In this document: positions 3,280-45,318 of the stretch, one piece after another
Numbering within the stretch: the stretch's first letter is position 1
Layout of the letters: each line of letters starts with the position of its first letter
Virus record (IMG/VR): IMGVR_UViG_3300049893_003686
Length of the DNA stretch: 64,000 nt
From: a virus
Strand: one strand, 5' to 3'
The notes under the pieces: model-generated
What the model saw: the letters and a program-made list of their open reading frames with translations, nothing else
What the model was told of the DNA's origin: nothing
The model's database searches: none
Made by a program: the position numbers and the translations under genes

Positions 3280-3551
3280 TTTCTCATGTGGGAGTTTATT
3301 TTTATTCTGGGGCTTCTTGGGTTTCTTGGGTTTCTGGGGTTTCTGTGACTTCTTGGGTTTCTAGGGTTTCTGGGGTTTCTGGGGTTTCTGTGACTTCTGG
3401 GGTTTCTGGGGTTTCTGGGGCTTCTGGGGTTTCTAGGGCTTCTAAGGCCTCTATGGTTTCTGGGGCAAGAGGTGGTAGATTATTTCTCATGTGGGAGTTT
3501 ATTGGTACGGCGAGGTTACTGGAGCGGACCTATTCGTATAGGAATAGATAA
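3276..3551 (+). CDS. Candidate small repeat protein (unit B4), reading through a decayed fifth linker
   Basis: AAGAGG-N6-ATG. The next junction is mutated (AGATTA instead of AGATGA), so the ORF continues to 3551. Confidence 0.25.
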
Positions 3552-3589
3552 TTTAAGTATAAAGCAATATACTTCACATAGAGAGTGAC

Positions 3590-4078
3590 ATGAATATCTT
3601 CCTAGTAGATACTGATCCAATTAAAGCAGCACAAGCGTTATGCGACAAACATTGTATCAAAATGATTCTAGAAACAGCACAATTGCTATCAACATCAGTA
3701 TACCTCACAAAAGGAGATTTAACAGGGCTGTATAAGCCAACCCATTTAGCACATCCATGTACTAAGTGGGCCTCAGAGTCTAAGATTAATTTTAATTGGC
3801 TAAAGAACCATGGATTAGGCCTTCTGTCGGAATATACGTTTCGATATCGAAAAGAGCATAAGTCAACACAGATAATATTAAAATGCACTAATGAATCTCT
3901 ACCAGACTTACCTGCTACAGATTTTGTTCAGGTAATGCCAGAGGTATATAGACGACCAGATCCTACAGAAGCATATAGGGCTTATTATAATAGTGCAAAG
4001 TATATGATGGCCACGTGGACAAGGCGGCAGCCTCCAGAATGGTGGTGCTCACAATTGTACGTAGAAAAGCACGAATAA
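3590..4078 (+). CDS. Conserved hypothetical protein
   Basis: 162-aa ORF and the first gene after the repeat region. The motifs DKHCIKMILETAQLLS and HPCTKWA recall a widespread phage/bacterial family that I cannot name with certainty. Confidence 0.7.
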   Translation: MNIFLVDTDPIKAAQALCDKHCIKMILETAQLLSTSVYLTKGDLTGLYKPTHLAHPCTKWASESKINFNWLKNHGLGLLSEYTFRYRKEHKSTQIILKCTNESLPDLPATDFVQVMPEVYRRPDPTEAYRAYYNSAKYMMATWTRRQPPEWWCSQLYVEKHE

Positions 4079-25708: not shown

Positions 25709-25792
25709 GGGCCAGTAGACGCGCTCCGCTCATAACGGAGTAAGGGTAATTTGGTTCTGAAAATGTGGGTTCAAGTCCCACCTGGCCCACCA
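25709..25792 (+). tRNA. Atypical tRNA-like element, copy 1 (CAU anticodon loop, no canonical D arm, 24-nt variable region, CCA encoded)
   Basis: Acceptor GGGCCAG/CTGGCCC. Hairpin CTCCG-CTCATAA-CGGAG. T arm GTGGG-TTCAAGT-CCCAC. Discriminator A followed by CCA. Only 8 nt (TAGACGCG) lie in the D-arm position. Identical to 42249..42332. Confidence 0.5.
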
Positions 25793-25936
25793 TTTACACG
25801 TACTCAATTCCTAATCTGACGTACGGTAATAGAATGATTAGGATCTCACTCTTCGGGATTTAAGAGCAACCCTTTAGCCTTAGGCGTTGTAGTACGGAGA
25901 GAAAAGGCCATCTTCTTTTAAGGAGAGCGTCAGCTA

Positions 25937-28430: not shown

Positions 28431-28510
28431 GAGAATTAATCTAGATATAAGGTCACATTAACTATAACTATAGCGTCATGCTGGCGTATATAGGAATAAT
28501 CGGAGAAAAG

Positions 28511-30857: not shown

Positions 30858-31628
30858 ATGAGCAGTAATGAACTTGGTTTGAAGATTAAAAGTTTATATG
30901 AAAATCGTACACGACTCTTGCTAGATCAAGATGAGTATATAATTATCAGAATTGATGGTAAGAATTTTTCAAGATATACTCGTAAGCTCAAAAAGCCATT
31001 CGATCAGGATCTTGCAGATGATTTCGACCAAACTGCTAAGATATTGTGCTCTCAAATCATGGGAGCACATATGGCATATACTCAAAGTGATGAGATAAGT
31101 ATTGTAGTTTCGAATTTTAGTTCTTCAGGTAAGGACATCTGGTTTAACGGAAATATACAAAAAATAGTTTCAGTATCATGTTCAATGGCAACAGCATCAT
31201 TTAATGATTCAAGAATAAAGCGAAGTGTTGATTATAAAGGTGGAATTTTTGATTCTAGGGTATTTACAATACCTGATCGCTCATCAGTATTAGAGTATTT
31301 AACCTGGAGACAAAAGGATGCAAGTAGAAATTCCATTTCCATGATTGCAAGAAGCGTAATGAGTAGTAAAGAAATGCATGGAATTTCTACTGGCAAAATA
31401 ATAGAGATTTTAAAAGATAGAGGAATAGACCTCAAAATATATAATCAAGGTCTATTGTATGGAAGAATTATTTTCAAAGAAAAATTTACAGTAACCGCTA
31501 CTCATAGTGAATACGGGATTGCTCAAAATTCTGATTCACTCAGAACAAGATGGGTAGCTAAGACAGCACCAAATTTCTCTAAAGAAGACATTTCCATAGA
31601 ATTGATTCCAGAAAGAAAGCTTTCTTGA
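30858..31628 (+). CDS. Thg1-like protein (tRNA-His guanylyltransferase / 3'-5' polymerase family, TLP)
   Basis: IIRIDGKNFSRYT..KPFDQDLADDF..MAYTQSDEISIV matches the Thg1 palm-domain blocks. Confidence 0.8.
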   Translation: MSSNELGLKIKSLYENRTRLLLDQDEYIIIRIDGKNFSRYTRKLKKPFDQDLADDFDQTAKILCSQIMGAHMAYTQSDEISIVVSNFSSSGKDIWFNGNIQKIVSVSCSMATASFNDSRIKRSVDYKGGIFDSRVFTIPDRSSVLEYLTWRQKDASRNSISMIARSVMSSKEMHGISTGKIIEILKDRGIDLKIYNQGLLYGRIIFKEKFTVTATHSEYGIAQNSDSLRTRWVAKTAPNFSKEDISIELIPERKLS

Positions 31629-31640
31629 TAGGAGCATAAT

Positions 31641-31973
31641 ATGAACGTATTTATAAGCACAAATTTCTATCTTTCAATGTTCCAAGATTTAGATAAGAAG
31701 GCAAAGATAGTGACATTTGACCAAATTGGTCTTAATATGGTAAAGCGATTTCTCGGACAAAATCCTATTAGTGTAAATATTGATTTACGTACAGCAACAG
31801 CGTTATCGGCAGCCCTATCTATTCCTATTATGGAATCATCAAGATTTGAAGTTGTAAAATCAGGCGATGCAGTCGTGATTGCCAAATATCATGGTCCAGA
31901 TTTGAAGACAACAAAAGACAAAGCTATGCCGCATAACGGCAGGTTTGACTTTTACCGTGCGGTTATCTCATGA
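31641..31973 (+). CDS. Hypothetical protein
   Basis: 110-aa ORF with a GGAG SD. Confidence 0.55.
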   Translation: MNVFISTNFYLSMFQDLDKKAKIVTFDQIGLNMVKRFLGQNPISVNIDLRTATALSAALSIPIMESSRFEVVKSGDAVVIAKYHGPDLKTTKDKAMPHNGRFDFYRAVIS

Positions 31974-32182
31974 AACTTATAGCACGATTAATCCTCTCAC
32001 CAGCCATACTTACGACATATGCTACATATGGAGCTGTATTAGCTGCACAATCTTGTAGAGATGATTGCACTCTCTTATCTAGTTTAAAGCACGGATTATC
32101 AGGTTGTGTAGCGGGATTTGCTCATGGATCCTATTATATTGTAAGCGGTCGTAAACTAAGTAACTCTTTATTTGATGAGTAA
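31970..32182 (+). CDS. Hypothetical membrane protein
   Basis: ATGA overlap with the upstream gene and two hydrophobic segments. Confidence 0.5.
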   Translation: MKLIARLILSPAILTTYATYGAVLAAQSCRDDCTLLSSLKHGLSGCVAGFAHGSYYIVSGRKLSNSLFDE

Positions 32183-32184
32183 AT

Positions 32185-33492
32185 ATGATTAAGATTCCGC
32201 TTTCAATCTCCCCGTCATATGTTAGCTGGTCATGGTGGCATGCAATGCGCGAATTATTCCAAAATGGAATGGACGCACATGAGCAAGGGCTGCTAATGAC
32301 CTATTCATTTGATGAGAAGTTGCGACAATTAGCGATCAAGAATGAGGGAGCTAGTTTACCTAGAGAATCGCTTGTTCTTGGAGTTACATCGAAGAGAAAT
32401 GCCGCTAATCAACGCGGAGAATTTGGAGAGGGCTATAAGCTTGCAATGGCAACACTGTGTCGCTTAGGAGCGCATGTTACTATTTTTAACGGTAAAGAGA
32501 TCTGGATTCCGGAACTAATTCACTCAGATGTATTTAATACAGAAGTTCTATCATTTACCATTAAACCTAGCGCTATAGAGCATTCGCTTACAATTGTAGT
32601 AACAGGGATTCCAGTAGCAGAGTGGGAATTAGCAAATGAAAGATTGCTATTCTTATATGATACCCAACCTAAAGCGCTATCATGCAATGATGGCTCTATT
32701 TTATTAGAGCCGCAATATGCCGGTAAATTATATGTAAAAGGCATTTTTGTAAATGACTTACCAGATAAACATAAATTTGGATATGATTTATCTAAAATTA
32801 AGCTAGATCGAGATAGGCAAATTCCAGACATATATGCGTTAAGATATGCTTTATGCTGCCTGCTAAAAAGAACTACAGAGCTTGGCTTGCTAAAGCCGCT
32901 AGAAGTACTGGAAATTCTAGAGGCAGAATCAGGTGAGATTAGAGCATTTGATGCAGATTTTGCGAAATCTCCAGTCTTTGAGAAAATTGTAGCAGAAGCA
33001 TTCGATACAAAATACGGGAAAGATGCCATCCCAGTTAAATCATTAGATGACAGTATCAGAGCCAAAGATTTTGCTCTAAAAGGAGTAATTGTTAACTCTA
33101 CCCTTCTAAGGATTCTTAATAATACCAAGGTATCATTAAATCAGATTGTGGAATCTATGGTTCTATTGCCAACTAAAATCTGGTCGGCAAATGAACTTTC
33201 TAATGAGGAGATTTCAAATTTAAAATGGGCTGTAGAGTTAACGGCAAGGGTAGAGCCAATATCACTAACTCAAATTTCTGTTGTAGATTTTATAGGCGAT
33301 AAATTATATGGAAAGTTTGAATTTAGTACAGAGCACGTATCTATCGCTAGAAGAATTTTATGCGACAAGGTAGAACTAATTGCCACCATGGTGCATGAAA
33401 TATGTCATCGCTATGGTCCAGATGGCGACCTGAGACACAGATATGCAGTAGAAAATAGGTTGTCAAAACTCATCCTACTAGGGCAGAACTAA
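32185..33492 (+). CDS. GHKL/sacsin-like ATPase-fold protein with a C-terminal HExxH motif
   Basis: The N-box ExxxNxxD appears as MRELFQNGMDAH. RGEFGEGYK resembles the GxFGxGF block. VHEICH lies near the C-terminus. Confidence 0.55.
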   Translation: MIKIPLSISPSYVSWSWWHAMRELFQNGMDAHEQGLLMTYSFDEKLRQLAIKNEGASLPRESLVLGVTSKRNAANQRGEFGEGYKLAMATLCRLGAHVTIFNGKEIWIPELIHSDVFNTEVLSFTIKPSAIEHSLTIVVTGIPVAEWELANERLLFLYDTQPKALSCNDGSILLEPQYAGKLYVKGIFVNDLPDKHKFGYDLSKIKLDRDRQIPDIYALRYALCCLLKRTTELGLLKPLEVLEILEAESGEIRAFDADFAKSPVFEKIVAEAFDTKYGKDAIPVKSLDDSIRAKDFALKGVIVNSTLLRILNNTKVSLNQIVESMVLLPTKIWSANELSNEEISNLKWAVELTARVEPISLTQISVVDFIGDKLYGKFEFSTEHVSIARRILCDKVELIATMVHEICHRYGPDGDLRHRYAVENRLSKLILLGQN

Positions 33493-33572
33493 TCTATTAG
33501 ATTAAATAATCTGCTTATAATTATAACACAATGTTAATTATAATATAACCAAGGATATCGGTATGCAGTTAA

Positions 33573-33938
33573 ATGAAAGACATAACAAGAGAATATATTA
33601 AGTTCTTTGCAATAGAGGAACAGATAAATAATATACTAGATGATTTCTTTGCAATGCTAATGAATTCATTAAATACATATGATGCTAATTATTTTCTCAG
33701 ACTGAGAGCTGGCTTTGATATGATCCTTCTATCTGAGAAAATTGGAGCAATTTTAGAAGATACATTTTCAGATGCAGAGTTACAGGAAATAATTGTTCTA
33801 TATAAGGCAAACCCTGTTCTGCTCAAAGTATTAGATGCCAGAGATGTTATATCATCCGCTCAGGCTAAAGCCGGCCAGGAAATGGTTGAAGAGGCGCTAT
33901 GCAAGGTACCTTTTGTCGTTTCTGATGGGAGCTGTTAA
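33573..33938 (+). CDS. Hypothetical protein
   Basis: 121-aa ORF. Confidence 0.55.
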   Translation: MKDITREYIKFFAIEEQINNILDDFFAMLMNSLNTYDANYFLRLRAGFDMILLSEKIGAILEDTFSDAELQEIIVLYKANPVLLKVLDARDVISSAQAKAGQEMVEEALCKVPFVVSDGSC

Positions 33939-34588
33939 TGAAAGTCGTATGTGTGAGTGATACACATAATTATGCTAATTATGTAGAAATTCCAGAAGGA
34001 GATGTGCTGGTTCATGCTGGAGATTTTACAATGAGCGGCTCACAAAAAGAATTTGAAGCATTCGCTAGATGGCTGGCCACTTTGACACACGAACATGTTA
34101 TTATAGTAGCCGGCAATCATGACTGGTTGGCTGAAAAAGACCCAGTACAAGCCAGGCAAATTATTGAAGGGGCCAGGCATAACATACATTATTTAGTAGA
34201 TCAATCTATAATACTTAGTGGAATTAAATTCTACGGATCGCCATATCAGCCAGAGTTTCGTCAATGGGCATTTAATTTACCAAGAGGAGATAGAAGTAAA
34301 GAGAAATGGGCTGAAATACCTGATGATACGAACGTGTTAATCACACATGGTCCACCAATTATGATTGGAGATCAGGTACATAGGAGTGATACTATTGTAG
34401 TTGAAAATGTTGGATGCAAAGATCTAGCGGAGAGGATAGCTACATTATCACAATTAAAAGCTCATATATATGGGCATATTCATGACGGATATGGACATAG
34501 GGTGATTAATAATATCTCCTATATTAATGCATCTGCGTTGAATGATAAATATCAGATAGCCCATAAACCAATTTTACTTAATCTATAG
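33938..34588 (+). CDS. Calcineurin-like metallophosphoesterase (second copy type, MPPED/239FB-like)
   Basis: SDTH, AGDF, GNHD, THGPP and GHIH motifs in order. Confidence 0.8.
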   Translation: MKVVCVSDTHNYANYVEIPEGDVLVHAGDFTMSGSQKEFEAFARWLATLTHEHVIIVAGNHDWLAEKDPVQARQIIEGARHNIHYLVDQSIILSGIKFYGSPYQPEFRQWAFNLPRGDRSKEKWAEIPDDTNVLITHGPPIMIGDQVHRSDTIVVENVGCKDLAERIATLSQLKAHIYGHIHDGYGHRVINNISYINASALNDKYQIAHKPILLNL

Positions 34589-34693
34589 CATGATAATTAA
34601 AATTAATAATATGAGCGGGAATCGCACTCTAATTTCTTTATATATGTAAAGATCTTATACATATATTGATATTAGCGATAGCAAATATAACAA

Positions 34694-34879
34694 ATGGGAG
34701 TATATAAAATGATTGATCTACATATCCAAGAAGCTCTTGAAGAGGTGCGCGACACTCTTTCGAATTATATGAGCGAAGCAGAGATGTTCGATGACACTGA
34801 TGAGCGATTGGCATCAGCAGAAGAAGTAATGCAGGAAGTGCTTGACAAGATTACGGCTTTAATTGAAGGTTCACTATGA
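34694..34879 (+). CDS. Hypothetical acidic protein
   Basis: 61-aa ORF with an alternative ATG at 34709. A 9-bp-stem hairpin lies upstream at ~34641-34668. Confidence 0.5.
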   Translation: MGVYKMIDLHIQEALEEVRDTLSNYMSEAEMFDDTDERLASAEEVMQEVLDKITALIEGSL

Positions 34880-35238
34880 AGGAATCGATAGAAATTTTCC
34901 AGATTAGAACTAAGTCTGGATTATTTAGCTCAGGTGGTATCAGACCGAGCTTTAAGAAAAAAGGAAAAGCATGGTATAAACTTACTGATGTGCTAAGACA
35001 TCTTGCTGAACTTGACGGTTTACGGCGAGAGGAAATATATAAAGGATGTGTTATTACCTCAAGAGTTTATGAGCTTAGGACACAGATAGATCAGCCAATA
35101 GAAAATGTACTGTCTGAATTAACAGAAAAAGAAAATAAGAAGATGCAGAAAAGAGAAGCTGATCGAAGGGCCTATATTGAGCGCGAAGAGTTAGCAGAAC
35201 TAGAGCGGCTAAAAGCCAAATATAGTAATGTGCGGTAA
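34876..35238 (+). CDS. Hypothetical protein
   Basis: ATGA overlap with the upstream gene; 120 aa. Confidence 0.6.
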   Translation: MKESIEIFQIRTKSGLFSSGGIRPSFKKKGKAWYKLTDVLRHLAELDGLRREEIYKGCVITSRVYELRTQIDQPIENVLSELTEKENKKMQKREADRRAYIEREELAELERLKAKYSNVR

Positions 35239-35288
35239 GTCATTGACCTTATTGGAAATAAAAGCTCCCTATTATAGCAGAATATTAT

Positions 35289-35450
35289 ATGGCAAAGAAA
35301 AATAAAAAGAAAAATAAGATACGTATTCCAAGAAAGCTTGCACGCTTAGCATGGGAGCGTAATGGGGCAGGTCAACATAAGGACAAGAAACATCAAAAAA
35401 ATATAGATGAATGTCGCAAGTGGACTGCAGATCAGGAGTTAGATAATTAA
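35289..35450 (+). CDS. Possible 53-aa highly basic protein
   Basis: Begins MAKKNKKKNKIRIPRKLARLAWERNG.. and is below the ORF-track cutoff. Confidence 0.35.
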   Translation: MAKKNKKKNKIRIPRKLARLAWERNGAGQHKDKKHQKNIDECRKWTADQELDN

Positions 35451-35527
35451 TTCCACCAGTCGACAGACATGCTCATATATTTTATTATCAACAATTCTCT
35501 AACAAATCTATATAATTTGGTGATAAT

Positions 35528-35929
35528 ATGATTGAATTTACATCTGCAGAAAATGGTGACCCTCAATATGATAATCGCAAATGGGTGGATAAAATGTTCA
35601 CCGATGCTAGTCAAAACGGACCTGTCCCACTAGATGTTGTCGTACATGATTGCAGTGATAAATCAAATTTAGGAACAGTAGAGCTAAATCCCAATAGTAT
35701 TAGCGTACTGGCAGATTTTGCTATAAATACTTCAAGTAAGAATATCCTAAAGGGAGAACACATACTTGTACTTGGAGGAAATCGTCAAGCAAGAGGTGGA
35801 CTGGGTAGACTGTGGGTGCCAGCAAGCCAGCTAGGAGATTTGATCAATCATCTACAGACACTAAAAGCATCTCTTGACCAGGACCTAACTAGATTAGTTG
35901 AGCAGATGCGCTCAGAGCGGGATGACTAG
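35528..35929 (+). CDS. Hypothetical protein
   Basis: 133-aa ORF. Confidence 0.6.
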   Translation: MIEFTSAENGDPQYDNRKWVDKMFTDASQNGPVPLDVVVHDCSDKSNLGTVELNPNSISVLADFAINTSSKNILKGEHILVLGGNRQARGGLGRLWVPASQLGDLINHLQTLKASLDQDLTRLVEQMRSERDD

Positions 35930-36039
35930 AACTAGCAAATAATTTGAAAGAAAAAAGTCACGCAGTACTTTACGTAGGGATGCTACCTGATTATATTACC
36001 AATAATCAGGCGCACATGCGCACCTTACGGAGGTATACT

Positions 36040-36435
36040 ATGCTGTTCAAGTACTTAACTTTGGATCCAATGGATAATTTGCTTGGGTCATTTGGGCGTA
36101 CATATAACTCAACCCACAATAAGCTACCAGCGAATATTTCATCTCAACAAGATAAATACGAAATAAGCATCCTTATTCCAGGATTTACCAAAGACGAGAT
36201 TAAGTTAACTGTAAGTGGTAATACTATGCTAATTTTAGCTGAAAAATCAACCATTTCTGATGTGGAATATTTCCATAAAGAATTTGCAATTGAAACAGTA
36301 GAGCGTAAAATATCATTACCTTCTTCAGTTAAGAAGGATGCCATTTCAGCATCATATAATGAAGGAATTCTGACCATTACACTCCCACACTCTAACTTAA
36401 GAAATGAGTCTTCCATTGAAATTCAAGTTTGCTAA
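36040..36435 (+). CDS. Hsp20/alpha-crystallin small heat-shock protein
   Basis: The alpha-crystallin domain reads ..ISILIPGFTKDEIKLTVSGNTMLILAEK..ISLPSSV..ISASYNEGILTITLP. A GGAGG SD precedes ATG 36040. Confidence 0.85.
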   Translation: MLFKYLTLDPMDNLLGSFGRTYNSTHNKLPANISSQQDKYEISILIPGFTKDEIKLTVSGNTMLILAEKSTISDVEYFHKEFAIETVERKISLPSSVKKDAISASYNEGILTITLPHSNLRNESSIEIQVC

Positions 36436-37300
36436 CAATCACCATAATGGTATAGATTACTGTATCATCTATCATGCTAACTGTGCCGACGGCTTTGCGG
36501 CTGCTTGGGCCATATGGAAAGTGCTAGGGGACCAGCTGGCCAGCTATCATCCGGCAGCATACGGCTCAGAGCCACCTGAAGAAATAAAGGATAGGCACGT
36601 AGTTATAGTAGATTTTTCATACTCTCGTAAGGTTCTTGAAGAAATCAAGAGCAAGGCAAAAAGCCTGTTAGTTCTCGATCATCATAAAAGTGCTGAAGAG
36701 AGTTTGCGTGATTTCGAGGGAGCTCATTTTGATATGAATCGCAGCGGGGCCGGTATGGCATGGGATTATTTCCATGAAAAGCCCCGTCCGCCACTCATTA
36801 ATTATGTAGAGGATCGAGACTTATGGAACTGGAAGCTGCCATATGCTAAAGAACTAACCGCTATGTTTGAAATTGATAATCAATCATTTCAAGATCTCTC
36901 TGAATTTAATAGCAAGTTAGAGTCACCTGAAGAATTTCAAGTCTTGGTAACTAAGGGGTCTGCTGTCCTAGAATATAAGAATTCTAGAGTTAAAATGCTG
37001 TCCTCCAAACCTTATATGGTAGACATATCCAGTATATGTATGTTAGATGACCTGACATTGCAGATTCCATGTGTCAATTCTCAACTTTTTCAAAGTGAAA
37101 TTGGTAATGTTTTGGCTCAAAAGCATCCAATGGCAATAGTTTGGTATCGCGCAGAAGACGGATCATATAGACACTCATTGCGTTCGAATGGCAAAATTGA
37201 TTGTAGCAAGATTGCTCAATTTTGGGGAGGCGGGGGTCATGCAAATGCAGCAGGATTTACAACGCAAGAACCCTTAGTTAGAATGGATGATAAAAGCTAA
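36404..37300 (+). CDS. DHH/DHHA1-family phosphoesterase
   Basis: YHANCADGFAAAW, the DHH motif in VLDHHKS, and the C-terminal GGGGHANAAG (DHHA1 GGGH). Confidence 0.8.
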   Translation: MSLPLKFKFANNHHNGIDYCIIYHANCADGFAAAWAIWKVLGDQLASYHPAAYGSEPPEEIKDRHVVIVDFSYSRKVLEEIKSKAKSLLVLDHHKSAEESLRDFEGAHFDMNRSGAGMAWDYFHEKPRPPLINYVEDRDLWNWKLPYAKELTAMFEIDNQSFQDLSEFNSKLESPEEFQVLVTKGSAVLEYKNSRVKMLSSKPYMVDISSICMLDDLTLQIPCVNSQLFQSEIGNVLAQKHPMAIVWYRAEDGSYRHSLRSNGKIDCSKIAQFWGGGGHANAAGFTTQEPLVRMDDKS

Positions 37301-37320
37301 GCTTGCATATAATTTATGGG

Positions 37321-37484
37321 TGATGGACCCACAAGCCATCAGTTGGTCGCTAAAAGACTCGGCAAGGGCTGCCGCTATAATAGCCTATATTTATTAGTTT
37401 AATAGCTTATTAAACCACCCACAAGCAGATATATACATATGCCTTAATTTTAAGGTAGTATTATGTACTGCTTGTGGGTGGGTT
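37321..37484 (+). ncRNA. Candidate structured RNA upstream of the Ro60/TROVE gene (possible Y-RNA-like or regulatory element)
   Basis: First hairpin: TGATGG-ACCCACAAG-CCATCA (37321-37341). Second, long hairpin at 37413-37484: AACCACCCACAAGCAG..CTGCTTGTGGGTGGGTT, with 14 perfect bp, a bulged G and an inner CCTTAA-tt-TTAAGG. CCCACAAGC occurs twice and its complement once. Confidence 0.35.
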
Positions 37485-37506
37485 ATTAATAACTATATAC
37501 TGATAT

Positions 37507-37782
37507 ATGGCAATTACTCCATTAGAGTTGCAAACTCTTAGTACAGAGCAGATATCGAGCATCTCTCGGGCACGCTCTATAATAGACGCAGAGTTACGAT
37601 TAAAAGTCGACGAAGCATTTCCTATAAAGATTAGGCAGGGTATAATTGACTTTATTTTTAAAGAAAATGCAATGGTGCTCGATGCTCTGATATCAGAGTA
37701 CCGCGCAGCAGGATGGGAAGTGGTTACTTATTTGAGCGACAGTCAAGGTACATGGCTCAGCTTCTATCCTAGTTCTACGTGA
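37507..37782 (+). CDS. Hypothetical protein
   Basis: 91-aa ORF. Confidence 0.55.
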   Translation: MAITPLELQTLSTEQISSISRARSIIDAELRLKVDEAFPIKIRQGIIDFIFKENAMVLDALISEYRAAGWEVVTYLSDSQGTWLSFYPSST

Positions 37783-37852
37783 GCGGTAGAATTTATAATT
37801 CACATCATATATACTCTATATTTCTACTTGTCAGGCAAGCAGTAGGTGATTT

Positions 37853-39460
37853 ATGTCAATATTAAATACCGATGCAACTCAAACTCAGATATATGATAAT
37901 CGACAGATAAGAAATTCTGCTGGCGGCTATTCATTTGCAGTGGAAAATATGGATTATGTGCGGCGATTTCTAATTTTAGGAAGCGAGGGCGCGCAATATA
38001 GCCTACAGAATAGGCCAACTCTGTCGTTAGAGAACTGCCCGCATATATTGTTTATGCTAGATGCCGATGGCCAAAAAGTAGTAGAAGAGCTGGTCAAGGT
38101 ATCATTACAAGGCAGGGCGCCGAAGCAAGAGCCGACACTATTCGTATTAGCACTGGCAGCTAGACATAAGGATCTCGCTGTGCGTAAAGCCGCATTTGAT
38201 GCCGTGCAGAAGGTATGTCGCACAGCAACTATGCTATTTACCTTCTTAGATTTCTATAAAAAGTCCGGGGTGACATCTGGCTGGGGTCGCCTTATGCGAG
38301 ATGCGATATCGTCATGGTATAATAATAAGGATTTGCAATCTTTAATATATCAAGTTACGAAATATGGTAGTAGAAATGGGTGGTCGCATCAAGATGTGCT
38401 ACGTTTAGCACACACAAGGCCAGTAGATCAAGATCATTCTCTGTTATATAAGAAGATTACTTCTAAAAATAAGTTTAATATCGACATCAATATCGCTTCT
38501 GATAAGAATGCTTTTAATAAACTGCTAGCCATTGAAGCGGTGAAATTAGCAACAGAGGCAAAAAGTATCATCCCGTTAATTACAGAATTTAATTTAGTAC
38601 ATGAGCAGGTACCATCATCGCTAAAGCTTTGTCCCGATGTATGGGATGCATTGCTAGATAATATGCCATTAACTGCATTAATTCGTAATCTAGGAGCGAT
38701 GACATCCTCCGGGTTGCTTGTTAATGGAAATAGTGCTTCAAGAAGAGTGAGAGAAAAGCTATCTAATTTAGATACAATTAAGAGTGCAAGAATACATCCA
38801 TTTAATGTACTCACAGCATACAATACCTATGCAAAAGGAGTTGGTCAATTAGGTCACAAAAAATGGAACCCTAGTGAAGATATTATTGAAGCGCTAGATA
38901 GCCTATTCTATACCTCATTTACATTTATAGATCCATCGCATAAGCGCACACATCTCGCTATTGATGTATCGCGTTCGATGGATATGGGTACAATTCTTGG
39001 CTCGCCGGGGATGTCTCCTCGATTCGGCGCAGCCGCAATGTCAATGGCAACGCTGCGTTCTGAGGATAATGTTTCGATGAGCGCATTTTCGCATACATTA
39101 GTACCGCTACAATTTTCACCCAAAGATGATTTGCAGACAGTTATCAAGAAGATGAGGTCTATTAAAATGGGCGCCACAGATTGCGCCCTACCAATAACCA
39201 CTGCCATGCAGTCGAAGACCCCTATTGATACATTTGTTATATATACCGATAATGAAACTTGGTTCGGAAACGTTCACCCAATGGCAGCATTGCGCCAATA
39301 TCGAGATAGAATGGGAATTCCTGCCAGACTCATTGTCGTTGCAATGAAAGAAACAAACTTTACCATTGCAGATCCCGAAGATGCGGGTGCATTGGATGTA
39401 GTTGGATTTGATTCTGCCACTCCAGCTGTCATAGCAGAATTTTCACGCGGGGAGTTATAA
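37853..39460 (+). CDS. Ro60-related TROVE-domain protein with a C-terminal vWA domain
   Basis: The N-terminal NSAGGYSFAVENMDYVRRFLILGSEGAQY is characteristic of Ro/Rsr. The MIDAS DxSxS motif appears as IDVSRSM. 535 aa. Confidence 0.9.
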   Translation: MSILNTDATQTQIYDNRQIRNSAGGYSFAVENMDYVRRFLILGSEGAQYSLQNRPTLSLENCPHILFMLDADGQKVVEELVKVSLQGRAPKQEPTLFVLALAARHKDLAVRKAAFDAVQKVCRTATMLFTFLDFYKKSGVTSGWGRLMRDAISSWYNNKDLQSLIYQVTKYGSRNGWSHQDVLRLAHTRPVDQDHSLLYKKITSKNKFNIDINIASDKNAFNKLLAIEAVKLATEAKSIIPLITEFNLVHEQVPSSLKLCPDVWDALLDNMPLTALIRNLGAMTSSGLLVNGNSASRRVREKLSNLDTIKSARIHPFNVLTAYNTYAKGVGQLGHKKWNPSEDIIEALDSLFYTSFTFIDPSHKRTHLAIDVSRSMDMGTILGSPGMSPRFGAAAMSMATLRSEDNVSMSAFSHTLVPLQFSPKDDLQTVIKKMRSIKMGATDCALPITTAMQSKTPIDTFVIYTDNETWFGNVHPMAALRQYRDRMGIPARLIVVAMKETNFTIADPEDAGALDVVGFDSATPAVIAEFSRGEL

Positions 39461-39463
39461 ACC

Positions 39464-39910
39464 CTATTCTATATCAAATAGCAGGTCGTCAATCTTATCG
39501 GCCAAAAGAAAATTTCCAGCCAGGTCAAGATCATTAGCTAGTTTAGCTAGGGTGGCCAGCTTTATTGGGCTTAGAGTACCCTTTTGTACCGCCATCCCTA
39601 CGGCTATAATTGCAGCCCTTTGCACAGTTGGCATGGTAACTGTAGAGGTAAAAGCTGAAGCCTTTTGTTGGGCCATACCTACTTCTTGCGCTGTTAGCAT
39701 GCCAGTTGATTGAAGTTGGCGTAATACTTCACGGCACTCATCTTCGGTAAATGATCGCTTGATAGCAGATACTAATTCGCTTGCTTCAGTAAAAACACGA
39801 GCGCCTATTTTAATAGGCGCAGTACGGCCCTTCATAGATTGGCCACCAGTTAGAAATGACATTTCACGTTCAGAAATACCCAGATCAGCATCACTCATAC
39901 TATCCTCCAA
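39464..39910 (-). CDS. Hypothetical protein ending with the shared LAKLANDLD..ADKIDDL motif
   Basis: 148-aa minus-strand ORF with GGAGGA upstream of the ATG on the minus strand. Confidence 0.65.
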   Translation of the reverse strand: MEDSMSDADLGISEREMSFLTGGQSMKGRTAPIKIGARVFTEASELVSAIKRSFTEDECREVLRQLQSTGMLTAQEVGMAQQKASAFTSTVTMPTVQRAAIIAVGMAVQKGTLSPIKLATLAKLANDLDLAGNFLLADKIDDLLFDIE

Positions 39911-39977
39911 GATTGTAATAGTATGTAACTATGCGTATATTTATGGCCAATAACTAAATAGCAAAAGGACGCAGATA

Positions 39978-40217
39978 TTGATCACCATAGTATCAAACTT
40001 CTTTGAAGATATAAATAAAGCTACCCATAGTAATATAGCCCTGGCATCATTGCTAATGAAGATGCCTGAATATATTCTTCATATAGGGGCACTGTCAGAA
40101 CAAGAATATTTAGATACTATTGAAAAGGCCAAGGATATTACTTCAGATACCCAGCTTCAGGCTTTGTTAATAGAGGTTCTAACTAAAATGAGATCTACAG
40201 GCAAATCTTATTCTTAA
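39978..40217 (+). CDS. Hypothetical protein
   Basis: 79-aa ORF with a TTG start. Confidence 0.45.
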   Translation: MITIVSNFFEDINKATHSNIALASLLMKMPEYILHIGALSEQEYLDTIEKAKDITSDTQLQALLIEVLTKMRSTGKSYS

Positions 40218-40285
40218 TTTTATTGAGAGATAATTTACTATTGAAATTACTGCTATAAAATATTGCGATAATAGCGATAAATATT

Positions 40286-40762
40286 ATGAATACAATGTTA
40301 GTATTATTGCAGTTAATAACATTAACATATCAGGCCGAGGCAGTGCAGCATAAGTATACTGCTGGGTATATCCGTGGCACACCAGTCAAACTAAGAGTTG
40401 TAGAGGTGGGCGGTTATGATAATGATGGAAGGCCGCTAATGCTTGAGCAGAGAGCAGCTGATAGTTTTATCAAAATGAGAGCAGCCATGGTAGCTGATGG
40501 GTTAAATTTGCAAGTAAATTATGCTCACAGATCAATGAAGCAGCAAACATCGCTTTTTCGTAAAAATCATAAATTGGCCAGCCGACCAGGAACAAGCCCT
40601 CATCAAAAAGGTATCGCTATAGATGTAGCTAATTGTACTAAATATATAAGTAATCGTAGGGTTGATACTAGAACATGTCGATGGTTAAGACGACATGCAA
40701 AACAATATGGATTTTCTAGAACAATAAAAAGTGAGCCATGGCACTGGCAGTATATATACTAA
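40286..40762 (+). CDS. Peptidase M15 (VanY / D-Ala-D-Ala carboxypeptidase-like) with an N-terminal signal; endolysin candidate
   Basis: SPHQKGIAIDV matches SxHxxGxAxD. EPWHWQY is also present. The N-terminus is hydrophobic (MNTMLVLLQLITLTYQAEA). Confidence 0.8.
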   Translation: MNTMLVLLQLITLTYQAEAVQHKYTAGYIRGTPVKLRVVEVGGYDNDGRPLMLEQRAADSFIKMRAAMVADGLNLQVNYAHRSMKQQTSLFRKNHKLASRPGTSPHQKGIAIDVANCTKYISNRRVDTRTCRWLRRHAKQYGFSRTIKSEPWHWQYIY

Positions 40763-40764
40763 AT

Positions 40765-40938
40765 ATGCAAACCATACACTTATTCATCTTTATTATGATA
40801 GTTGGCGTGACGCCACACTTGTATATATTATCAGTAATTTTAAAGAGACAAATCAGGAGTATTTATGACCGATCCAAACAATACTACAGACGCAAATACA
40901 GCAGCAATCTGCATGGCAATACAGCACCTCTTGATTAA
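40765..40938 (+). CDS. Possible holin-like small membrane protein
   Basis: ATG lies 3 nt after the peptidase stop. A TM core (IHLFIFIMIVGVTPHLYILSVIL) is followed by a basic tail. It overlaps the next, SD-led gene by 74 nt, which weakens the call. Confidence 0.3.
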   Translation: MQTIHLFIFIMIVGVTPHLYILSVILKRQIRSIYDRSKQYYRRKYSSNLHGNTAPLD

Positions 40939-41161
40939 AAAGGGAGTATGTTCATATAATGAGCTGGTCGAAGCCAATGGTAAGGCGCAGAAAGTTTTAG
41001 AGAAAATTTACGCATCTGTTTCAGATGAAAGTGGCAACATTAATGCCTTACATGAATCTGTTAAAGATATGTTAATGTTTATTGGAGGAGAAGAGGCAAT
41101 GCCCTCATTAGAAGCTGCATTTGCACGTGCAGCTGATTTGACCCCAGAGGAGAATGAATAA
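40865..41161 (+). CDS. Hypothetical protein
   Basis: Strong AGGAG SD; 98 aa. Confidence 0.6.
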   Translation: MTDPNNTTDANTAAICMAIQHLLIKKGVCSYNELVEANGKAQKVLEKIYASVSDESGNINALHESVKDMLMFIGGEEAMPSLEAAFARAADLTPEENE

Positions 41162-41677
41162 GTGGCTCTAATAGGATTCAATCCACGTCATAACTATGAT
41201 GTACGACTTACTATAGAAGATGGCCCGCAACTTGGAGTTTATAAGTTACAGGATGCAATAAGAATTGCCACAGAGCGTGGATTGGATCTGGTAAATATAT
41301 CGCCGCAAGCTAAGCCGCCAGTAGCAAAGATAATGGATCATGGTCGGTTCAAGTATCGCCAAAAGCAGGCTGCTAAAGAGGCTAAGAAGAAGCAGCATGT
41401 GGTTGTGCTCAAAGAAATCAAATTAGGCGTAAACATAGAGAGGCACGATCTTGATGTTAAGCTATCTAAGATTAAAGAATGTATTGTTGATGGATGCAAG
41501 GTAAAGATTGTCATTCGATTCTATGGTAGAGAAAACGCTCATAAGGAACTCGGTTCTACATTGATGGATGCAATTCTTACGGAAATCAAAGATTTTGTCA
41601 TAATAGAAACCCCACCTACCTCAGAACGCAGGGAGATTTTCGCTATAGTGAGACCTAAAAATGATAAAAAAGCTTAA
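41162..41677 (+). CDS. infC: Translation initiation factor IF-3
   Basis: The N-domain reads VRLTIEDGPQLGVYKLQDAIRIATERGLDLV, the linker reads KYRQKQAAKEAKKKQ, and the C-domain reads LKEIKLGVNIERHDLDVK..FYGRENAH. The predicted GTG start abuts the upstream stop. Confidence 0.9.
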   Translation: MALIGFNPRHNYDVRLTIEDGPQLGVYKLQDAIRIATERGLDLVNISPQAKPPVAKIMDHGRFKYRQKQAAKEAKKKQHVVVLKEIKLGVNIERHDLDVKLSKIKECIVDGCKVKIVIRFYGRENAHKELGSTLMDAILTEIKDFVIIETPPTSERREIFAIVRPKNDKKA

Positions 41678-41822
41678 AACAATAGCATATACTCTTGCTG
41701 GAACTACAGTTACGCTAGCATCACTAATTTATATTGAGAGGGCGCTCAGCAATATTATTTTAAAGCATGCAAGTAAGCATGCTCGTAAGATTAATAGTGT
41801 AGATGAGAAAAATGACAGATAA
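41661..41822 (+). CDS. Possible 53-aa membrane peptide overlapping the infC end
   Basis: Begins MIKKLKTIAYTLAGTTVTLASLIYIERAL.. and is below the track cutoff. It overlaps both neighbours by 17-20 nt. Confidence 0.3.
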   Translation: MIKKLKTIAYTLAGTTVTLASLIYIERALSNIILKHASKHARKINSVDEKNDR

Positions 41823-42201
41823 TATACTATATGTTGATTTTAAGAATAAAAAACGAATAGAACACTCCATTGCAGAGGCCCCATCTGCAGTGCCTACATT
41901 GTTTAATGAAAAAAGGCGGAGATTCCTAGAGCTACTAGAACTTGGCATTGTCCGGACGGTATCTTCTGGTAATGATCCAAATCTATTGCTTCCACAGCAC
42001 ATATACGCTCAAGAAGTTCATTTAAATTGGAGCTCTAAATTTCTGATATCAGATTTAGTGATCAATGATAATGGTATAAGTGGAACATTATCATTTAATC
42101 AAACGCCATCGCATGTTACGGTACCGTGGAGTTCTATTATTTCCATGTGGAGCCTCAGTCATCCAAAAGATTATAGATTCGACTGGGATATAAATGAGTG
42201 A
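41803..42201 (+). CDS. SspB-like (ClpXP adaptor family) protein
   Basis: ..HLNWSSKFLISDLVINDNGISGTLSFNQTPSHVTVPWSSIISMWS aligns by eye with E. coli SspB ..LNIAPRAVGNLELANDEVRFNARFGGIPRQVSVPLAAVLAIYA. Confidence 0.5.
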   Translation: MRKMTDNILYVDFKNKKRIEHSIAEAPSAVPTLFNEKRRRFLELLELGIVRTVSSGNDPNLLLPQHIYAQEVHLNWSSKFLISDLVINDNGISGTLSFNQTPSHVTVPWSSIISMWSLSHPKDYRFDWDINE

Positions 42202-42248
42202 AAATAAATTAATTAACGCCATCTTCTGTCAGTAGCATAATTAGGTGC

Positions 42249-42332
42249 GGGCCAGTAGACGCGCTCCGCTCATAACGGAGTAAGGGTAATTTGGTTCTGA
42301 AAATGTGGGTTCAAGTCCCACCTGGCCCACCA
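42249..42332 (+). tRNA. Atypical tRNA-like element, copy 2 (identical to 25709..25792)
   Basis: The 84 nt are identical by eye, including the CCA. Identity continues for 3 nt (TTT) downstream, while the upstream flanks differ. Confidence 0.5.
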
Positions 42333-42346
42333 TTTTAACATCTTAG

Positions 42347-42616
42347 ATGAAATCTATACTAAATACTATAATGTTAAATAATGATAAATCATTTTTAACT
42401 AAAGCAATAATTGCTATTAAAGCAGCTCACTTGGGACCATTTATTTCGAGTGATGATATGAGTATGCTTCATGCTTATTATGCATCGGCAGAGCAAGAGT
42501 TGTATGCGCATTTTTGTGCGCAAGTAAACATACTCTATAAAACCAATGAAGTTAATAAACAAGATATTAATGTCTCTAATAGAGAAAGAGCCGTCTTTAG
42601 AAAAGATCATTCATGA
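42347..42616 (+). CDS. Hypothetical protein
   Basis: 89-aa ORF. Confidence 0.5.
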   Translation: MKSILNTIMLNNDKSFLTKAIIAIKAAHLGPFISSDDMSMLHAYYASAEQELYAHFCAQVNILYKTNEVNKQDINVSNRERAVFRKDHS

Positions 42617-43085
42617 ATTGGAACTATCATTAATTGATGATCCGCTCTTTGCATGTGCAGCAATATCAATTAAGGATGGTAATGTTGTACTTACCATTAA
42701 TCAAAGAAAATTCGATCTTTTAACTCAAGATGAGATGGTCGCTGTTATGGCCCATGAGATAGGACATCTTATATTAGGTCACCTATCTCATCGTACAATT
42801 CATGCTAATGATAGATTTATCATTAGCTTAGCTCAAGATTTGGCATTAAATTCTGGACTCGAACAATCATATACGCTGCCAAAGTGGTTTGTCACAGCAG
42901 AAAAGCTAAAGTTACCGCCTATGCTATCTACAGAGCAATACATAGAGCTACTTAGCCTTGATAATCAGTATGAGCTTAAAAAAATAGTTAAGATACCAGA
43001 TATTATAATGAATAGTGATCACGTCTCTAATAAAAAAATACTGAAGTCATTGATAGATAAAGTGCCCATGTCAATTATATTATAA
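42546..43085 (+). CDS. Putative zinc metallopeptidase (HExxH)
   Basis: VAVMAHEIGHLILGH. The start is uncertain: 42546 overlaps the upstream ORF by 71 nt. Confidence 0.55.
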   Translation: MKLINKILMSLIEKEPSLEKIIHELELSLIDDPLFACAAISIKDGNVVLTINQRKFDLLTQDEMVAVMAHEIGHLILGHLSHRTIHANDRFIISLAQDLALNSGLEQSYTLPKWFVTAEKLKLPPMLSTEQYIELLSLDNQYELKKIVKIPDIIMNSDHVSNKKILKSLIDKVPMSIIL

Positions 43086-43097
43086 TAAACAACTATA

Positions 43098-43340
43098 ATG
43101 TTTATGATGACAGCAAAAATATCTCTCGATGCAGATAGCAATCTCGTCATCAGTATGGATGATTACCCAAATAGATATCTTAGCGACTCATTAATTAAAC
43201 TGTCTATAGATAATAAAACATTCTCCGCTCCATCAGGATCAAGTCCTCAGAATCCTTGGAGTTGGAGATTTGCACAACAATTCAAACCAGCTCTTCTTTC
43301 TTTGTTAGAAAAGCATAAGATTGCAATAGAATATTTGTGA
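43098..43340 (+). CDS. Hypothetical protein
   Basis: 80-aa ORF. Confidence 0.55.
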   Translation: MFMMTAKISLDADSNLVISMDDYPNRYLSDSLIKLSIDNKTFSAPSGSSPQNPWSWRFAQQFKPALLSLLEKHKIAIEYL

Positions 43341-43825
43341 TGTCAAGCAGACCTGATTGGGATCAGTATTTTCTTAACTTAGCTGCAGCTGCAGCCACTC
43401 GTGCTACATGTGATCGGGCTAAAGTGGGCTGTGTTCTGGTAAGAGATAACAGGATTATCTCTACGGGATACAATGCATCTATTAGCGGGCATGCACATTG
43501 CGACGATGCTGGGCATATAATTGTGAATAATTCATGCATACGAGCTGCTCATGCGGAAGAGAATGCAGTTATTACGGCAGCTAAATTCGGCACATCAATT
43601 GCTGATACGACCGCATATACTACACATTTTCCGTGCTGGAGATGCTTTAGGATGCTAGCAAATGCCGGGATTACGCGTATAGTATTCTTAAATATTAAAA
43701 TTAGTGATATGACGGCCGAGATACTAGACGAGTATCTCGCATCTTCAATAATGATCGAGAATGGTGAAGGTGCAACCTTGACCGATTTAAAACAAGTTAT
43801 CATTCAACAGATATCTAATAGATAA
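43337..43825 (+). CDS. dCMP deaminase (ComEB/Dcd-type)
   Basis: WDQYFLNLA..TCDRAKVGCVLV..HAEENA..PCWRC..GITRIVF. Start is GTG 43337 or ATG 43340. Confidence 0.9.
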   Translation: MMSSRPDWDQYFLNLAAAAATRATCDRAKVGCVLVRDNRIISTGYNASISGHAHCDDAGHIIVNNSCIRAAHAEENAVITAAKFGTSIADTTAYTTHFPCWRCFRMLANAGITRIVFLNIKISDMTAEILDEYLASSIMIENGEGATLTDLKQVIIQQISNR

Positions 43826-43836
43826 GGTAGAAATAA

Positions 43837-44925
43837 GTGGCAGACCAAACAAGCACTGTTCCATCTACAGTTGATTTTGAGCGTGTACTAAAATCTTTAG
43901 GAATTAAAGCAACTGTAGTCTGTGTAGAGATAAACTTTCCGCTTGCAAGGTATCAGATCAGATTAGATCCTAAGACTAGATTATCAAAATTAGAGAGCAT
44001 GGCTGACGATATCGCACTTGCCATGAAGCCACTTGCGCCACCAGTAATTAGACCGGCATTTACGAGCGGCATGGTCATTGCTGAAATGATGTTTGCAGAA
44101 CATCCAATAGTAGAATTTGATTCCATCTTTACTAAGCATGCAAGCGGTAACCTTCCGCTAACCTTAGGAGCTACCGATATAACAACTCCGCTTGTTATTG
44201 ATCTAACAAAGATGCCGCACCTGATAATTGCCGGAACTACAGGCAGTGGGAAAAGCATGTTACTACATGCCATTATTACATCAATAATTAGACTATATTC
44301 AGATATAGGAATTAAACTAGCCCTTCTAGATCCTAAGCTAGTAGAATTTGCAAGATATACGGATCACAACTCGTTACTATACTCAGTTATTAATGAGCCA
44401 GAACAGGCGATTGAGATGCTGGATGATTTAAGAGAAGAGATGAATAACAGATATAGGGTTTTTCAAAAGTTTAACTGCAGGGATATATCAGAATATAGAG
44501 TTAAATTTAAAAAAATACCATATATAGTATTAGTAATAGATGAGCTAGCTGACTTGATGCGTATCAAGGGTTTTGAAAAAGGCCTATGTGAAATAGCTCA
44601 AAAGAGTCGTGCCGCCGGCATACATATAGTAGCTGCTACACAGCACCCGTCATCAAAAGTATTGACCGGAGAAATCAGAGCAAACTTTCCAAGTAAAATA
44701 GCGTGCAAAGTAGCCACTCAAGTGCACTCTCGGGTTGTTCTAGATAGAAGCGGCGCAGAGAATTTACTGGGTAAAGGAGATGCTATTTTACTTGACGAAG
44801 CCGGGAATTCATTTAGATTTAGGGGAGCCTATGTTCCAAATGAAAAGCGTAATATAATAAATAAGGGGCCACATAATAAAGAGACTATACTTACCAAATT
44901 AGTCAAGGCCATGTCAAAGAAGTGA
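43837..44925 (+). CDS. FtsK/SpoIIIE-family DNA translocase ATPase
   Basis: Walker A IIAGTTGSGKS, Walker B LVIDELADL, and the ..IHIVAATQHPS.. block. GTG start. Confidence 0.85.
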   Translation: MADQTSTVPSTVDFERVLKSLGIKATVVCVEINFPLARYQIRLDPKTRLSKLESMADDIALAMKPLAPPVIRPAFTSGMVIAEMMFAEHPIVEFDSIFTKHASGNLPLTLGATDITTPLVIDLTKMPHLIIAGTTGSGKSMLLHAIITSIIRLYSDIGIKLALLDPKLVEFARYTDHNSLLYSVINEPEQAIEMLDDLREEMNNRYRVFQKFNCRDISEYRVKFKKIPYIVLVIDELADLMRIKGFEKGLCEIAQKSRAAGIHIVAATQHPSSKVLTGEIRANFPSKIACKVATQVHSRVVLDRSGAENLLGKGDAILLDEAGNSFRFRGAYVPNEKRNIINKGPHNKETILTKLVKAMSKK

Positions 44926-44958
44926 TTGAATTAATTAACTTCATACAAAGCCGCCGTT

Positions 44959-45318
44959 CTACATAGAACGTTTCGGACGCATTGATACTGTGCCGATTGG
45001 TTTTGAAGGAGCGTCTTCGCGGCCCTTCTCTAGAATGCTACGAAGCAGTTCTTCATATTCAGGACTAAGAGATTCAGCCGTAGGATCAGGCTCTCCAGGA
45101 ACCTTGCCAAAAACTAAGTCAACATCGTCTTCTCTAGAAGCTTGTTTGGTTGTAGTGCCGATTAGGCTCAGTAAGCGCGTACGGATATCTTCAATGCGGC
45201 CATCTTCGGTCAACTGACCTGTATTTACGGGGTTATTTATAGCTGAAGGCGGAAGAGGCAGATCAGTGGTGTCAGCGGCAGTGACTAAAAATTTATAAAG
45301 CTCGTTTTTAGAGATCAT
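44959..45318 (-). CDS. Hypothetical protein
   Basis: 119-aa minus-strand ORF with AAGGAG upstream on the minus strand. Confidence 0.55.
   Translation of the reverse strand: MISKNELYKFLVTAADTTDLPLPPSAINNPVNTGQLTEDGRIEDIRTRLLSLIGTTTKQASREDDVDLVFGKVPGEPDPTAESLSPEYEELLRSILEKGREDAPSKPIGTVSMRPKRSM

Follow-up and report, generated by a model that had tools for sequence, protein, structure and literature searches.

A covariation-supported RNA motif upstream of a huge-phage Ro60 gene, a candidate Ro60 partner outside the Y RNA family

Introduction

Ro60 proteins are thought to act together with a Y RNA, which gates the protein's ring and tethers it to nucleases. Here we analyse the gap that lies upstream of a Ro60 gene in a viral DNA of 64,000 nucleotides (nt), IMG/VR record IMGVR_UViG_3300049893_003686, which we call the window and whose positions serve as coordinates. 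In the described systems the Ro-binding motif is GNCGAAN0-1G (bacteria and phages) or GGUCCGA (animals) and sits near the 5' end of the RNA, and the Y-like RNAs of other Ro60-encoding phages are found directly 5' of Ro60 on the same strand (PMC4201824; PMC12135203). YrlA RNAs mimic tRNA and are encoded within 4 kb of Ro60, and searches based on YrlA fail for a fraction of the genomes that bear Ro60 (PMC4201824). TROVE proteins have previously been recorded in some huge phages of the type considered here (PMC7824862).

The window derives from a huge phage with many translation and RNA-repair genes; nearly all of its genes lie on the + strand and its G+C content is ~39%. Its Ro60 gene is preceded by a DHH-family phosphoesterase gene, the gap, and orf91, a gene for a small conserved protein. 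An earlier reading of this DNA, made without database searches (the sequence-only reading), had proposed that the gap encodes a Y-like RNA partner of Ro60, or else a structural switch or a terminator. We find that the gap holds a conserved RNA domain followed by a terminator-like hairpin, and that among the RNAs of this locus it is the best candidate for the partner of the phage Ro60.

Results

The gap between the DHH gene and orf91 runs from 37301 to 37506 and has the 206 nt attributed to it in the sequence-only reading. It precedes the Ro60 gene, as that reading held, but does not adjoin it, since orf91 stands in between. The entire gap folds at -72.3 kcal/mol (z = -5.8), a stability equalled by none of 200 shuffles, and the fold of the minus strand is weaker, at -66.1 kcal/mol. 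An alignment of relatives resolves the gap into a conserved 5' domain, an AU-rich spacer and a long hairpin (Table 1).

Six distinct genomes make up the main clade, namely the window and those represented by L012/L013/L021/L042, L014/L015, L016-L018/L027, L036 and L123; L038 and L040 form a more divergent syntenic pair, and L035 contains the 3' part of the gap only. The order HSP20, DHH, gap, orf89, Ro60 is common to the six main-clade genomes and the two divergent ones, where orf89 is the relatives' homologue of orf91 and both belong to a conserved 22-protein family. A covariance model of the 5' domain, R1, was built from five sequences with L123 left out. Each main-clade genome has a single match to R1, which in every case falls in the DHH-orf89 gap, and R1 detects L123, from outside its training set, at 66.7 bits. 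In the six-sequence alignment 97.4% of cells pair and six pairs show compensatory changes, a result matched by 0 of 500 shuffles, whose significance is overstated because the six sequences are related; when the pairing partners are slid as a control, pairing drops to 24-55%. The first 46 nt of the domain are 77% identical between genomes, compared with 60-65% in the flanking coding DNA, and the spacer, hairpin and tail are jointly just 37% identical. Conservation and fold of the gap RNA are thus established by these alignments, in agreement with the sequence-only reading's description of the gap as highly structured.

At the core of the domain is hairpin H1, the TGATGG/CCATCA hairpin that had already been picked out by eye, which is near-invariant, loop included. 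The pair at alignment columns 8-26 is G-C in four genomes, G.U in L036 and A-U in L123. G.U pairs fit the + strand alone, which implies, as far as base pairing can tell, that the RNA is read from the + strand. H2 shows compensatory changes in all four of its pairs around a conserved loop, and H3, a covarying third hairpin predicted by RNAalifold, forms a clear local stem in four of five relatives and a weak one in L036. The three pairs of a possible pseudoknot with the H1 loop are 100% paired, with one compensatory change (G-C to A-U in L012). An alternative 5-bp closing helix, P1, which joins 37315-37319 to 37375-37379 and would give the domain the shape of a small cloverleaf, is 92% paired with one-sided changes only. 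Pseudoknot and P1 are mutually exclusive, so that the domain would have either one or the other.

With its stretch GGG-U-GAUGG-N-CCC-NNAAN-CCAUC, able to form 3 bp plus 5-6 bp, the domain resembles H-type pseudoknots such as the T4 gene 32 operator and the preQ1-I aptamer, also in the 1-nt loops and the A-containing third loop that it would have and in the AU-rich tract that follows farther on, past H2 and H3. It differs from them in that the 3-bp stem has a single compensatory change, that the rival 5-bp helix is equally possible, and that no sequence or model match links it to them. A recoding pseudoknot acting after the DHH stop codon is unlikely, given that the distance from stop to domain varies (up to ~17 nt) and that there is no conserved downstream frame. 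Judged by alignment and Rfam search, the 5' domain is a covariation-supported RNA motif that belongs to no curated family. As a separate observation, two contigs of JGI metagenomes Ga0105052 and Ga0105051 (L032 527-552 and L026 5-30) have 25 of 26 nt in common with the H1 region GGGTGATGGACCCACAACCCATCAG, a likeness that exceeds what the search pattern demanded; both contigs look eukaryotic, with microsatellites, no open reading frames (ORFs) and a tRNA-derived fragment.

The 3' part of the gap forms the ~72-nt hairpin of the sequence-only reading, and every detail given there is present: 14 perfect pairs (37415-37428 with 37468-37481), a bulged G at 37482, two closing pairs (AA/TT) and, further in, the stem CCTTAA/TTAAGG. 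Among the inverted repeats of the entire window its arms, extended to 37407-37428 and 37468-37489, rank first. All eight relatives have a long hairpin (at least 13 pairs) of unrelated sequence at the same location, and a U-tract is clear behind it in L012, L016, L040 and L035. The U.G pairs of the long hairpin agree with the + strand. Position and structure are kept while the sequence is free, and the tail is U-rich, so the gap ends in a terminator-like architecture, and the long hairpin is most likely an intrinsic terminator, termination itself being our deduction from this pattern. Of the alternatives raised beforehand, this one is the best supported. Like Rho-independent terminators, the element is a GC-containing stem-loop with a U-rich tail that ends a co-oriented gene pair, and its structure and position persist as its sequence drifts through compensatory change; unlike them, it has an unusually long stem (14 perfect pairs plus extensions, ~83 nt in total) and, in the window, an interrupted U-tract (UUAUUAAU). 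A dispersed promoter/terminator cassette is excluded: the hairpin is unique in the genome, and CTACTAAT has 77 matches against 90 expected.

Exactly 16 nt 5' of the orf89/orf91 ATG, 10 of 10 sequences carry a heptamer that reads TAYTAAT in most of them (TTCTAAT in L016), with no Shine-Dalgarno sequence between box and ATG in any of the 10. The spacing is kept also in L039 (5999-6021), a short 7.3-kb contig that carries no Ro60 and whose orf89 homologue has neither a DHH gene nor an upstream RNA or hairpin. This arrangement suggests that orf91 has a separate start signal, as probably does Ro60 behind it, in which case the gap RNA and hairpin would belong to the upstream unit or stand alone. By the same comparison, they are not an obligatory leader of orf91. 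The box may be a promoter-like or a translation-start signal particular to orf89/orf91, and motifs of the TAYTAAT type are not enriched elsewhere in the window. A confident AlphaFold2 model was obtained for orf91, yet no significant structural match to it was found.

We compared the gap RNA with the Y RNAs directly. Covariance models for YrlA (RF02553), Y_RNA and sbRNA gave nothing at E <= 10 across 36800-40300 or at E <= 5 across 31000-45000, and the relatives' loci were likewise without a Y RNA/YrlA match. Rfam searches of the window and relatives, at gathering and at permissive E-values, returned only miRNA-precursor noise on the AU-rich hairpin and ordinary tRNAs. As positive controls, Rfam YrlA was detected at 37 bits in mycobacteriophage ET08, ~200 nt 5' of its Ro gene, and sbRNA-type matches were detected just 5' of Ro60 in the metagenomic phages L002 and L006. 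CGAA is absent from every intergenic stretch between 32 and 45 kb, and GNCGAA with a 5'/3' stem is absent from the whole 64 kb. The gap has no mimic of a T or D arm: it lacks a T loop of the GGTTCRANTCC type and gives no match to the tRNA model. P1 could close the 5' domain, but it is not a long bulged stem. Because it has no model match, motif or T loop, the gap RNA is, by these sequence measures, not a member of the Y RNA/YrlA family as defined in PMC4201824 and PMC12135203, and the proposal of a Y-like RNA does not hold in the family sense.

Resemblances of a more general kind stand beside these differences. Like YrlA (RF02553), Yrn1, the phiLo RNAs Yrl1/Yrl2 and the tandem RNAs of L002 and L006, the predicted gap RNA is a small structured non-coding RNA with a terminal stem and a U-rich tail, and it is the sole conserved structured RNA near Ro60 across the main-clade genomes. 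Its position is well defined: it lies on the + strand, which is Ro60's strand, 360-540 nt 5' of Ro60, is syntenic in all relatives and falls within the ~4-kb range of Y RNAs. Apart from the features listed above, it is unlike the Y RNAs in having a protein gene between it and Ro60 and in that Ro60 binding is only putative. The tandem RNAs themselves are canonical Y-like RNAs directly 5' of Ro60, in four copies at 5420-5900 of L006 and two at 5770-5915 of L002; reading their sequences gives the signature GGGCCGAA...GGUUAUC...UGCCC-UUUU, and Rfam sees in them a weak nematode sbRNA only.

The identity of the downstream gene as Ro60, also claimed in the sequence-only reading, is certain from its sequence. 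The protein has both the TROVE HEAT-repeat ring domain (Pfam TROVE, 4.3e-39) and the C-terminal Ro60-type vWA domain (vWA_Ro60, 5e-62), and by phmmer it matches Xenopus laevis Ro60 (1yvp, E 1.4e-129) and Deinococcus radiodurans Rsr (2nvo, E 2e-104) over the full length. In its translation the MIDAS motif of the vWA domain, DxSxS...T...D, is intact (AIDVSRSMD, GATDCA and YTDNET, that is DVSRS...GATDC...YTDNET). Within the segment TKYGSRNGWSHQDVLRLAH, K, R and H align with X. laevis K170, R174 and H187, which we take to be residues of Y RNA binding (K170, R174) and cavity binding (H187). With these equivalents kept, and granted the roles that we assume for them, the phage Ro60 probably still binds structured RNA. 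The distance from orf91 to Ro60 is only 70 nt, and in the window no conserved RNA was seen in this spacer.

At 100% identity the Ro60 protein has one occurrence only; its nearest relatives are 55-64% identical and come from metagenomic contigs, the longest of 368 kb. The DHH protein is 52-67% identical to the relatives' copies. The gene order around Ro60 is shared with these contigs; in the window it is Thg1, metallophosphatase, HSP20, DHH, Ro60, VanY-like protein and IF3, and the relatives additionally carry PTH2, IF1 (eIF-1a family), dCMP deaminase and an FtsK-like protein nearby. YqeY and a His-tRNA-synthetase-like fragment were also noted at the relatives' Ro60 loci.

Two repeat regions of the window lie away from this locus. 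Positions 1-4000 hold tandem small ORFs of ~60-100 amino acids (aa), in which a period of 9 nt is strong and a junction of 44 nt (AGATGATTTCTTATGCTGTAG...) recurs; neighbouring units overlap at start/stop junctions of the ATGA type and may belong to a collagen-like or other triplet-repeat protein family. At 29110-29300 a repeat with a period of 12/18 nt (GGTGAGGGTGAAGGAGAAGGCGAGGGAGAA) encodes a Gly/Glu-rich tract within a 774-aa ORF (28478-30802).

Table 1. Features of the Ro60 locus and of the RNAs considered with it; window coordinates unless a contig is named.
Feature	Position	Strand	Remarks
Thg1-like 3'-5' polymerase	30858-31628		RNA/translation-rich Ro60 surroundings
Metallophosphatase	33938-34588		RNA/translation-rich Ro60 surroundings
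DHH/DHHA1 phosphoesterase gene	36404..37300	+	Pfam DHH + DHHA1; PHROG DHH phosphoesterase 3.9e-78
Structured 5' RNA domain	37315..37391	+	match to covariance model R1, 77.7 bits
Possible 3-bp pseudoknot	37318..37330	+	GGG 37318-37320 with CCC 37328-37330 in the H1 loop
H1	37321..37341	+	TGATGG ACCCACAAG CCATCA; near-invariant including loop in 6 genomes
H2	37345..37359	+	GGTC [GCTAAAA] GACT; 4-bp stem, conserved 7-nt loop NCUAAAW
H3	37360..37374	+	CGGCA [AGGGC] TGCCG; variable sequence and length
AU-rich spacer	37380..37406	+	UUAG/AUUAG repeats
Long hairpin, terminator-like	37407..37489	+	core 37413-37484; tail UUAUUAAU
TATTAAT box	37484..37490	+	16 nt ahead of the orf91 ATG
orf91	37507..37782	+	small conserved protein, 91 aa, between gap RNA and Ro60
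Ro60	37853..39460	+	TROVE + vWA with MIDAS; Pfam, phmmer, translation
VanY-like peptidase	40286-40762		RNA/translation-rich Ro60 surroundings
IF3	41162-41677		RNA/translation-rich Ro60 surroundings
tRNA-like RNA, 87 nt	25709-25795, 42249..42335	+	two 100% identical copies, 16.5 kb apart
Ro60-tRNA-Tyr leader	L013 11609-11698, L014 11609-11698, L019 1815-1876, L035 2066-2154

Discussion

We tentatively favour, with a confidence that stops short of even, the view that the gap RNA is a clade-specific small or 3'-untranslated region (UTR)-derived RNA that serves as a protein-binding platform, with Ro60 as its most plausible client. The gap would encode a structured + strand RNA of ~175 nt, particular to this clade. 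Transcription would arrive from the HSP20-DHH unit, or start just ahead of the 5' domain, and would halt at the long hairpin, which would double as a Rho-independent terminator and a stem protecting the 3' end of the product, a stable small RNA or an RNA derived from the 3' UTR. orf91 and Ro60 would start from their own conserved TAYTAAT-N16-ATG signal. The near-invariant H1 and H2 loops would form the platform, and its likeliest client would be Ro60, encoded 360 nt downstream, for which the gap RNA could be a non-canonical stand-in for the missing Y RNA. Ro60 is the most plausible client because the clade is without a canonical Y RNA and this RNA is in the usual upstream position.

Several points weigh against this proposal, in addition to the relatedness of the aligned sequences mentioned above. 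What ties the gap RNA to Ro60 is synteny only, in six close and two divergent genomes, and a protein gene, orf91, separates the two. Neither a Ro-binding motif (GNCGAA or GGUCCGA) nor a bulged terminal helix is present. The start of the domain, 15 nt past the DHH stop in the window and 2-17 nt past it in the main-clade relatives, would be just as natural for an ordinary 3' UTR. Behind the hairpin, L014, L036, L038, L123 and the window have a weaker U-tract, and the window's tail has 5 U in 8. The 5' end of the RNA, its termination, its expression and its binding to Ro60 are steps that we infer.

On a bolder version of the same proposal, the gap RNA would represent a new class of Ro60-associated RNA, a Y RNA analogue that gates Ro60 through the H1/H2 loops and the long 3' helix and that might tether a partner. 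The tethered partner could be the DHH-family phosphoesterase (possibly a nuclease) or orf91, which would yield a phage counterpart of the Ro-Y RNA-PNPase machine. We regard this version as unlikely.

The strongest competitor, which we judge somewhat unlikely, is that the element is simply the cis-acting 3' end of the HSP20-DHH unit, a stability or processing element joined to an operon terminator and without any tie to Ro60. It is favoured by the short distance from the DHH stop in all six main-clade genomes, by the terminator-like hairpin and by the start box that orf91, like its homologue in L039, has to itself. Moreover, no convincing conserved promoter was found ahead of the domain; a -10-like hexamer can be picked out by eye in three of the six genomes. 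A sigma-70 promoter candidate, TTTACA-N17-TAGAAT at 37256-37284, was rejected, as it falls within conserved codons of the DHH gene and relatives do not retain it. However, the near-invariant H1/H2 loops exceed the needs of a stabilising 3' structure, and conservation over the first 46 nt of the domain exceeds that of the DHH gene's own coding sequence.

The distribution of the element also bears on this alternative. Pattern scans for homologues in IMG/VR, JGI metagenomes and GTDB genomes returned the same phages plus chance matches only, and a protein-based scan with DHH alone found no further homologues. DHH proteins of this type occur at more than 576 IMG/VR phage loci. Among the best 80 of these the gap RNA is present only in the one from the same clade, which is also the sole one with orf89 and Ro60 nearby; the remaining 79 are without Ro60, without orf89 and without the gap RNA. 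We reject on these grounds the idea of a 3' element common to phage DHH genes at large. The pattern fits a link of the gap RNA to the orf89-Ro60 module, and it does so weakly because those phages are distant; against such a link, the 79 loci may lack the RNA only through divergence, their DHH proteins being at most 45% identical.

Decidedly less probable is a cis-regulatory leader, whether riboswitch, attenuator or put/nut-like antitermination RNA, that steers read-through of the hairpin into orf91-Ro60. The architecture is suited to it, with genes that come after a folded and conserved domain, a spacer and a terminator, and in being a compact conserved multi-hairpin phage RNA directly 5' of a strong terminator the gap RNA is like riboswitch and attenuator leaders, HK022 put and lambda nut. 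In the window, moreover, part of H1 recurs in the 5' arm of the terminator. The sequence-only reading had described this as a 9-mer, CCCACAAGC, at 37328 and 37418 with its complement at 37470, so that two copies would compete for one partner. The positions are right and the full repeat is 10 nt (ACCCACAAGC, at 37327 and 37417), but it is not conserved and is within chance, direct repeats of at least 10 nt occurring in 6.7%, and of at least 9 nt in 18%, of gap sequences shuffled by dinucleotide. Pairing of the upstream region with the 3' arm of the terminator gives a duplex that ranks in the top 1% of shuffles in the window, whereas in six relatives 32-82% of shuffles are as good. The attenuator is thus unsupported, its pairing being unusual in the window only. 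The gap RNA is unlike the known leaders in having no conserved antiterminator pairing and no similarity to curated families (none of the known riboswitch or leader families matches at E <= 10). A start box of its own precedes the downstream gene, and in L039 the homologue has TAYTAAT-N16-ATG with no leader and no hairpin.

It is very improbable that the Ro60 partner is instead the duplicated 87-nt tRNA-like RNA of the window, acting as a tRNA mimic in the style of YrlA, as had also been suggested. This RNA lies on Ro60's strand with one copy 2.8 kb from Ro60, and YrlA RNAs mimic tRNA within 4 kb of Ro60 (PMC4201824). Its acceptor stem is of 7 bp, CCA is encoded, the T arm is canonical and a CAU anticodon sits in a CUCAUAA loop, and it scores 42.1 bits with Rfam tRNA, above the gathering score; its D arm is replaced by ~6 nt and its variable region spans ~21-24 nt, so that of the acceptor, D, anticodon and T arms of a full cloverleaf one is missing. 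Default ARAGORN makes no call, and a relaxed ARAGORN model depends on flanking sequence in which the two copies are not alike. The tRNA borders are precisely where the repeat ends, so it has neither a Ro-binding stem at its flanks nor a GNCGAA motif; there is no match to the YrlA model either, and an ordinary acceptor stem with CCA stands where YrlA has a permuted T-AS-D order. The RNA was not found in the relatives' loci, most of which carry a tRNA-Tyr just after Ro60. The first copy lies 65 nt past a normal tRNA-Arg(TCT), and L001, an independent Logan contig, breaks off within the repeat.

The tRNA-Tyr(GTA) is found behind Ro60 in seven of nine relatives, with a conserved leader of ~50 nt between it and the Ro60 stop codon. 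This leader reads ...CACCTATAC..GTGGTG..GACAGC[N]GGAGAGAC[N']GC, and the third pair of its hairpin covaries as C-G, A-U, U-A and U.G. Neither the tRNA-Tyr nor its leader is in the window; the leader could be a second Ro-linked RNA element.

There is at best a slim chance that the conservation stems from a micro-ORF, (M/V)GDGP..H..., or from a DNA site (origin, recombination or homing) rather than from RNA structure: a frame ATG GGT GAT GGA CCC... does open at 37316 and two variable columns, 13 and 16, coincide with third codon positions, but the start codon is missing from L012 (GTA), in L036 and L123 an in-frame TAG closes the frame after eight codons with conservation extending past it, the G to A and C to T changes of L123 form a compensatory pair that in frame would mean Asp to Asn and a stop, no Shine-Dalgarno sequence is present, and the G.U pairs together with the strand asymmetry in folding energy favour RNA over both micro-ORF and DNA site.

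In this clade of huge phages, Ro60 is embedded among translation and RNA-repair genes and has no recognisable Y RNA, and a different conserved RNA occupies the usual upstream position. Were the gap RNA not to bind Ro60, the gap would still give a new covariation-supported RNA motif and a very strong terminator. If the gap RNA does bind Ro60, the definition of Ro partners would become wider, and this locus would offer a compact system in which to study the role of phage Ro60 in infection.

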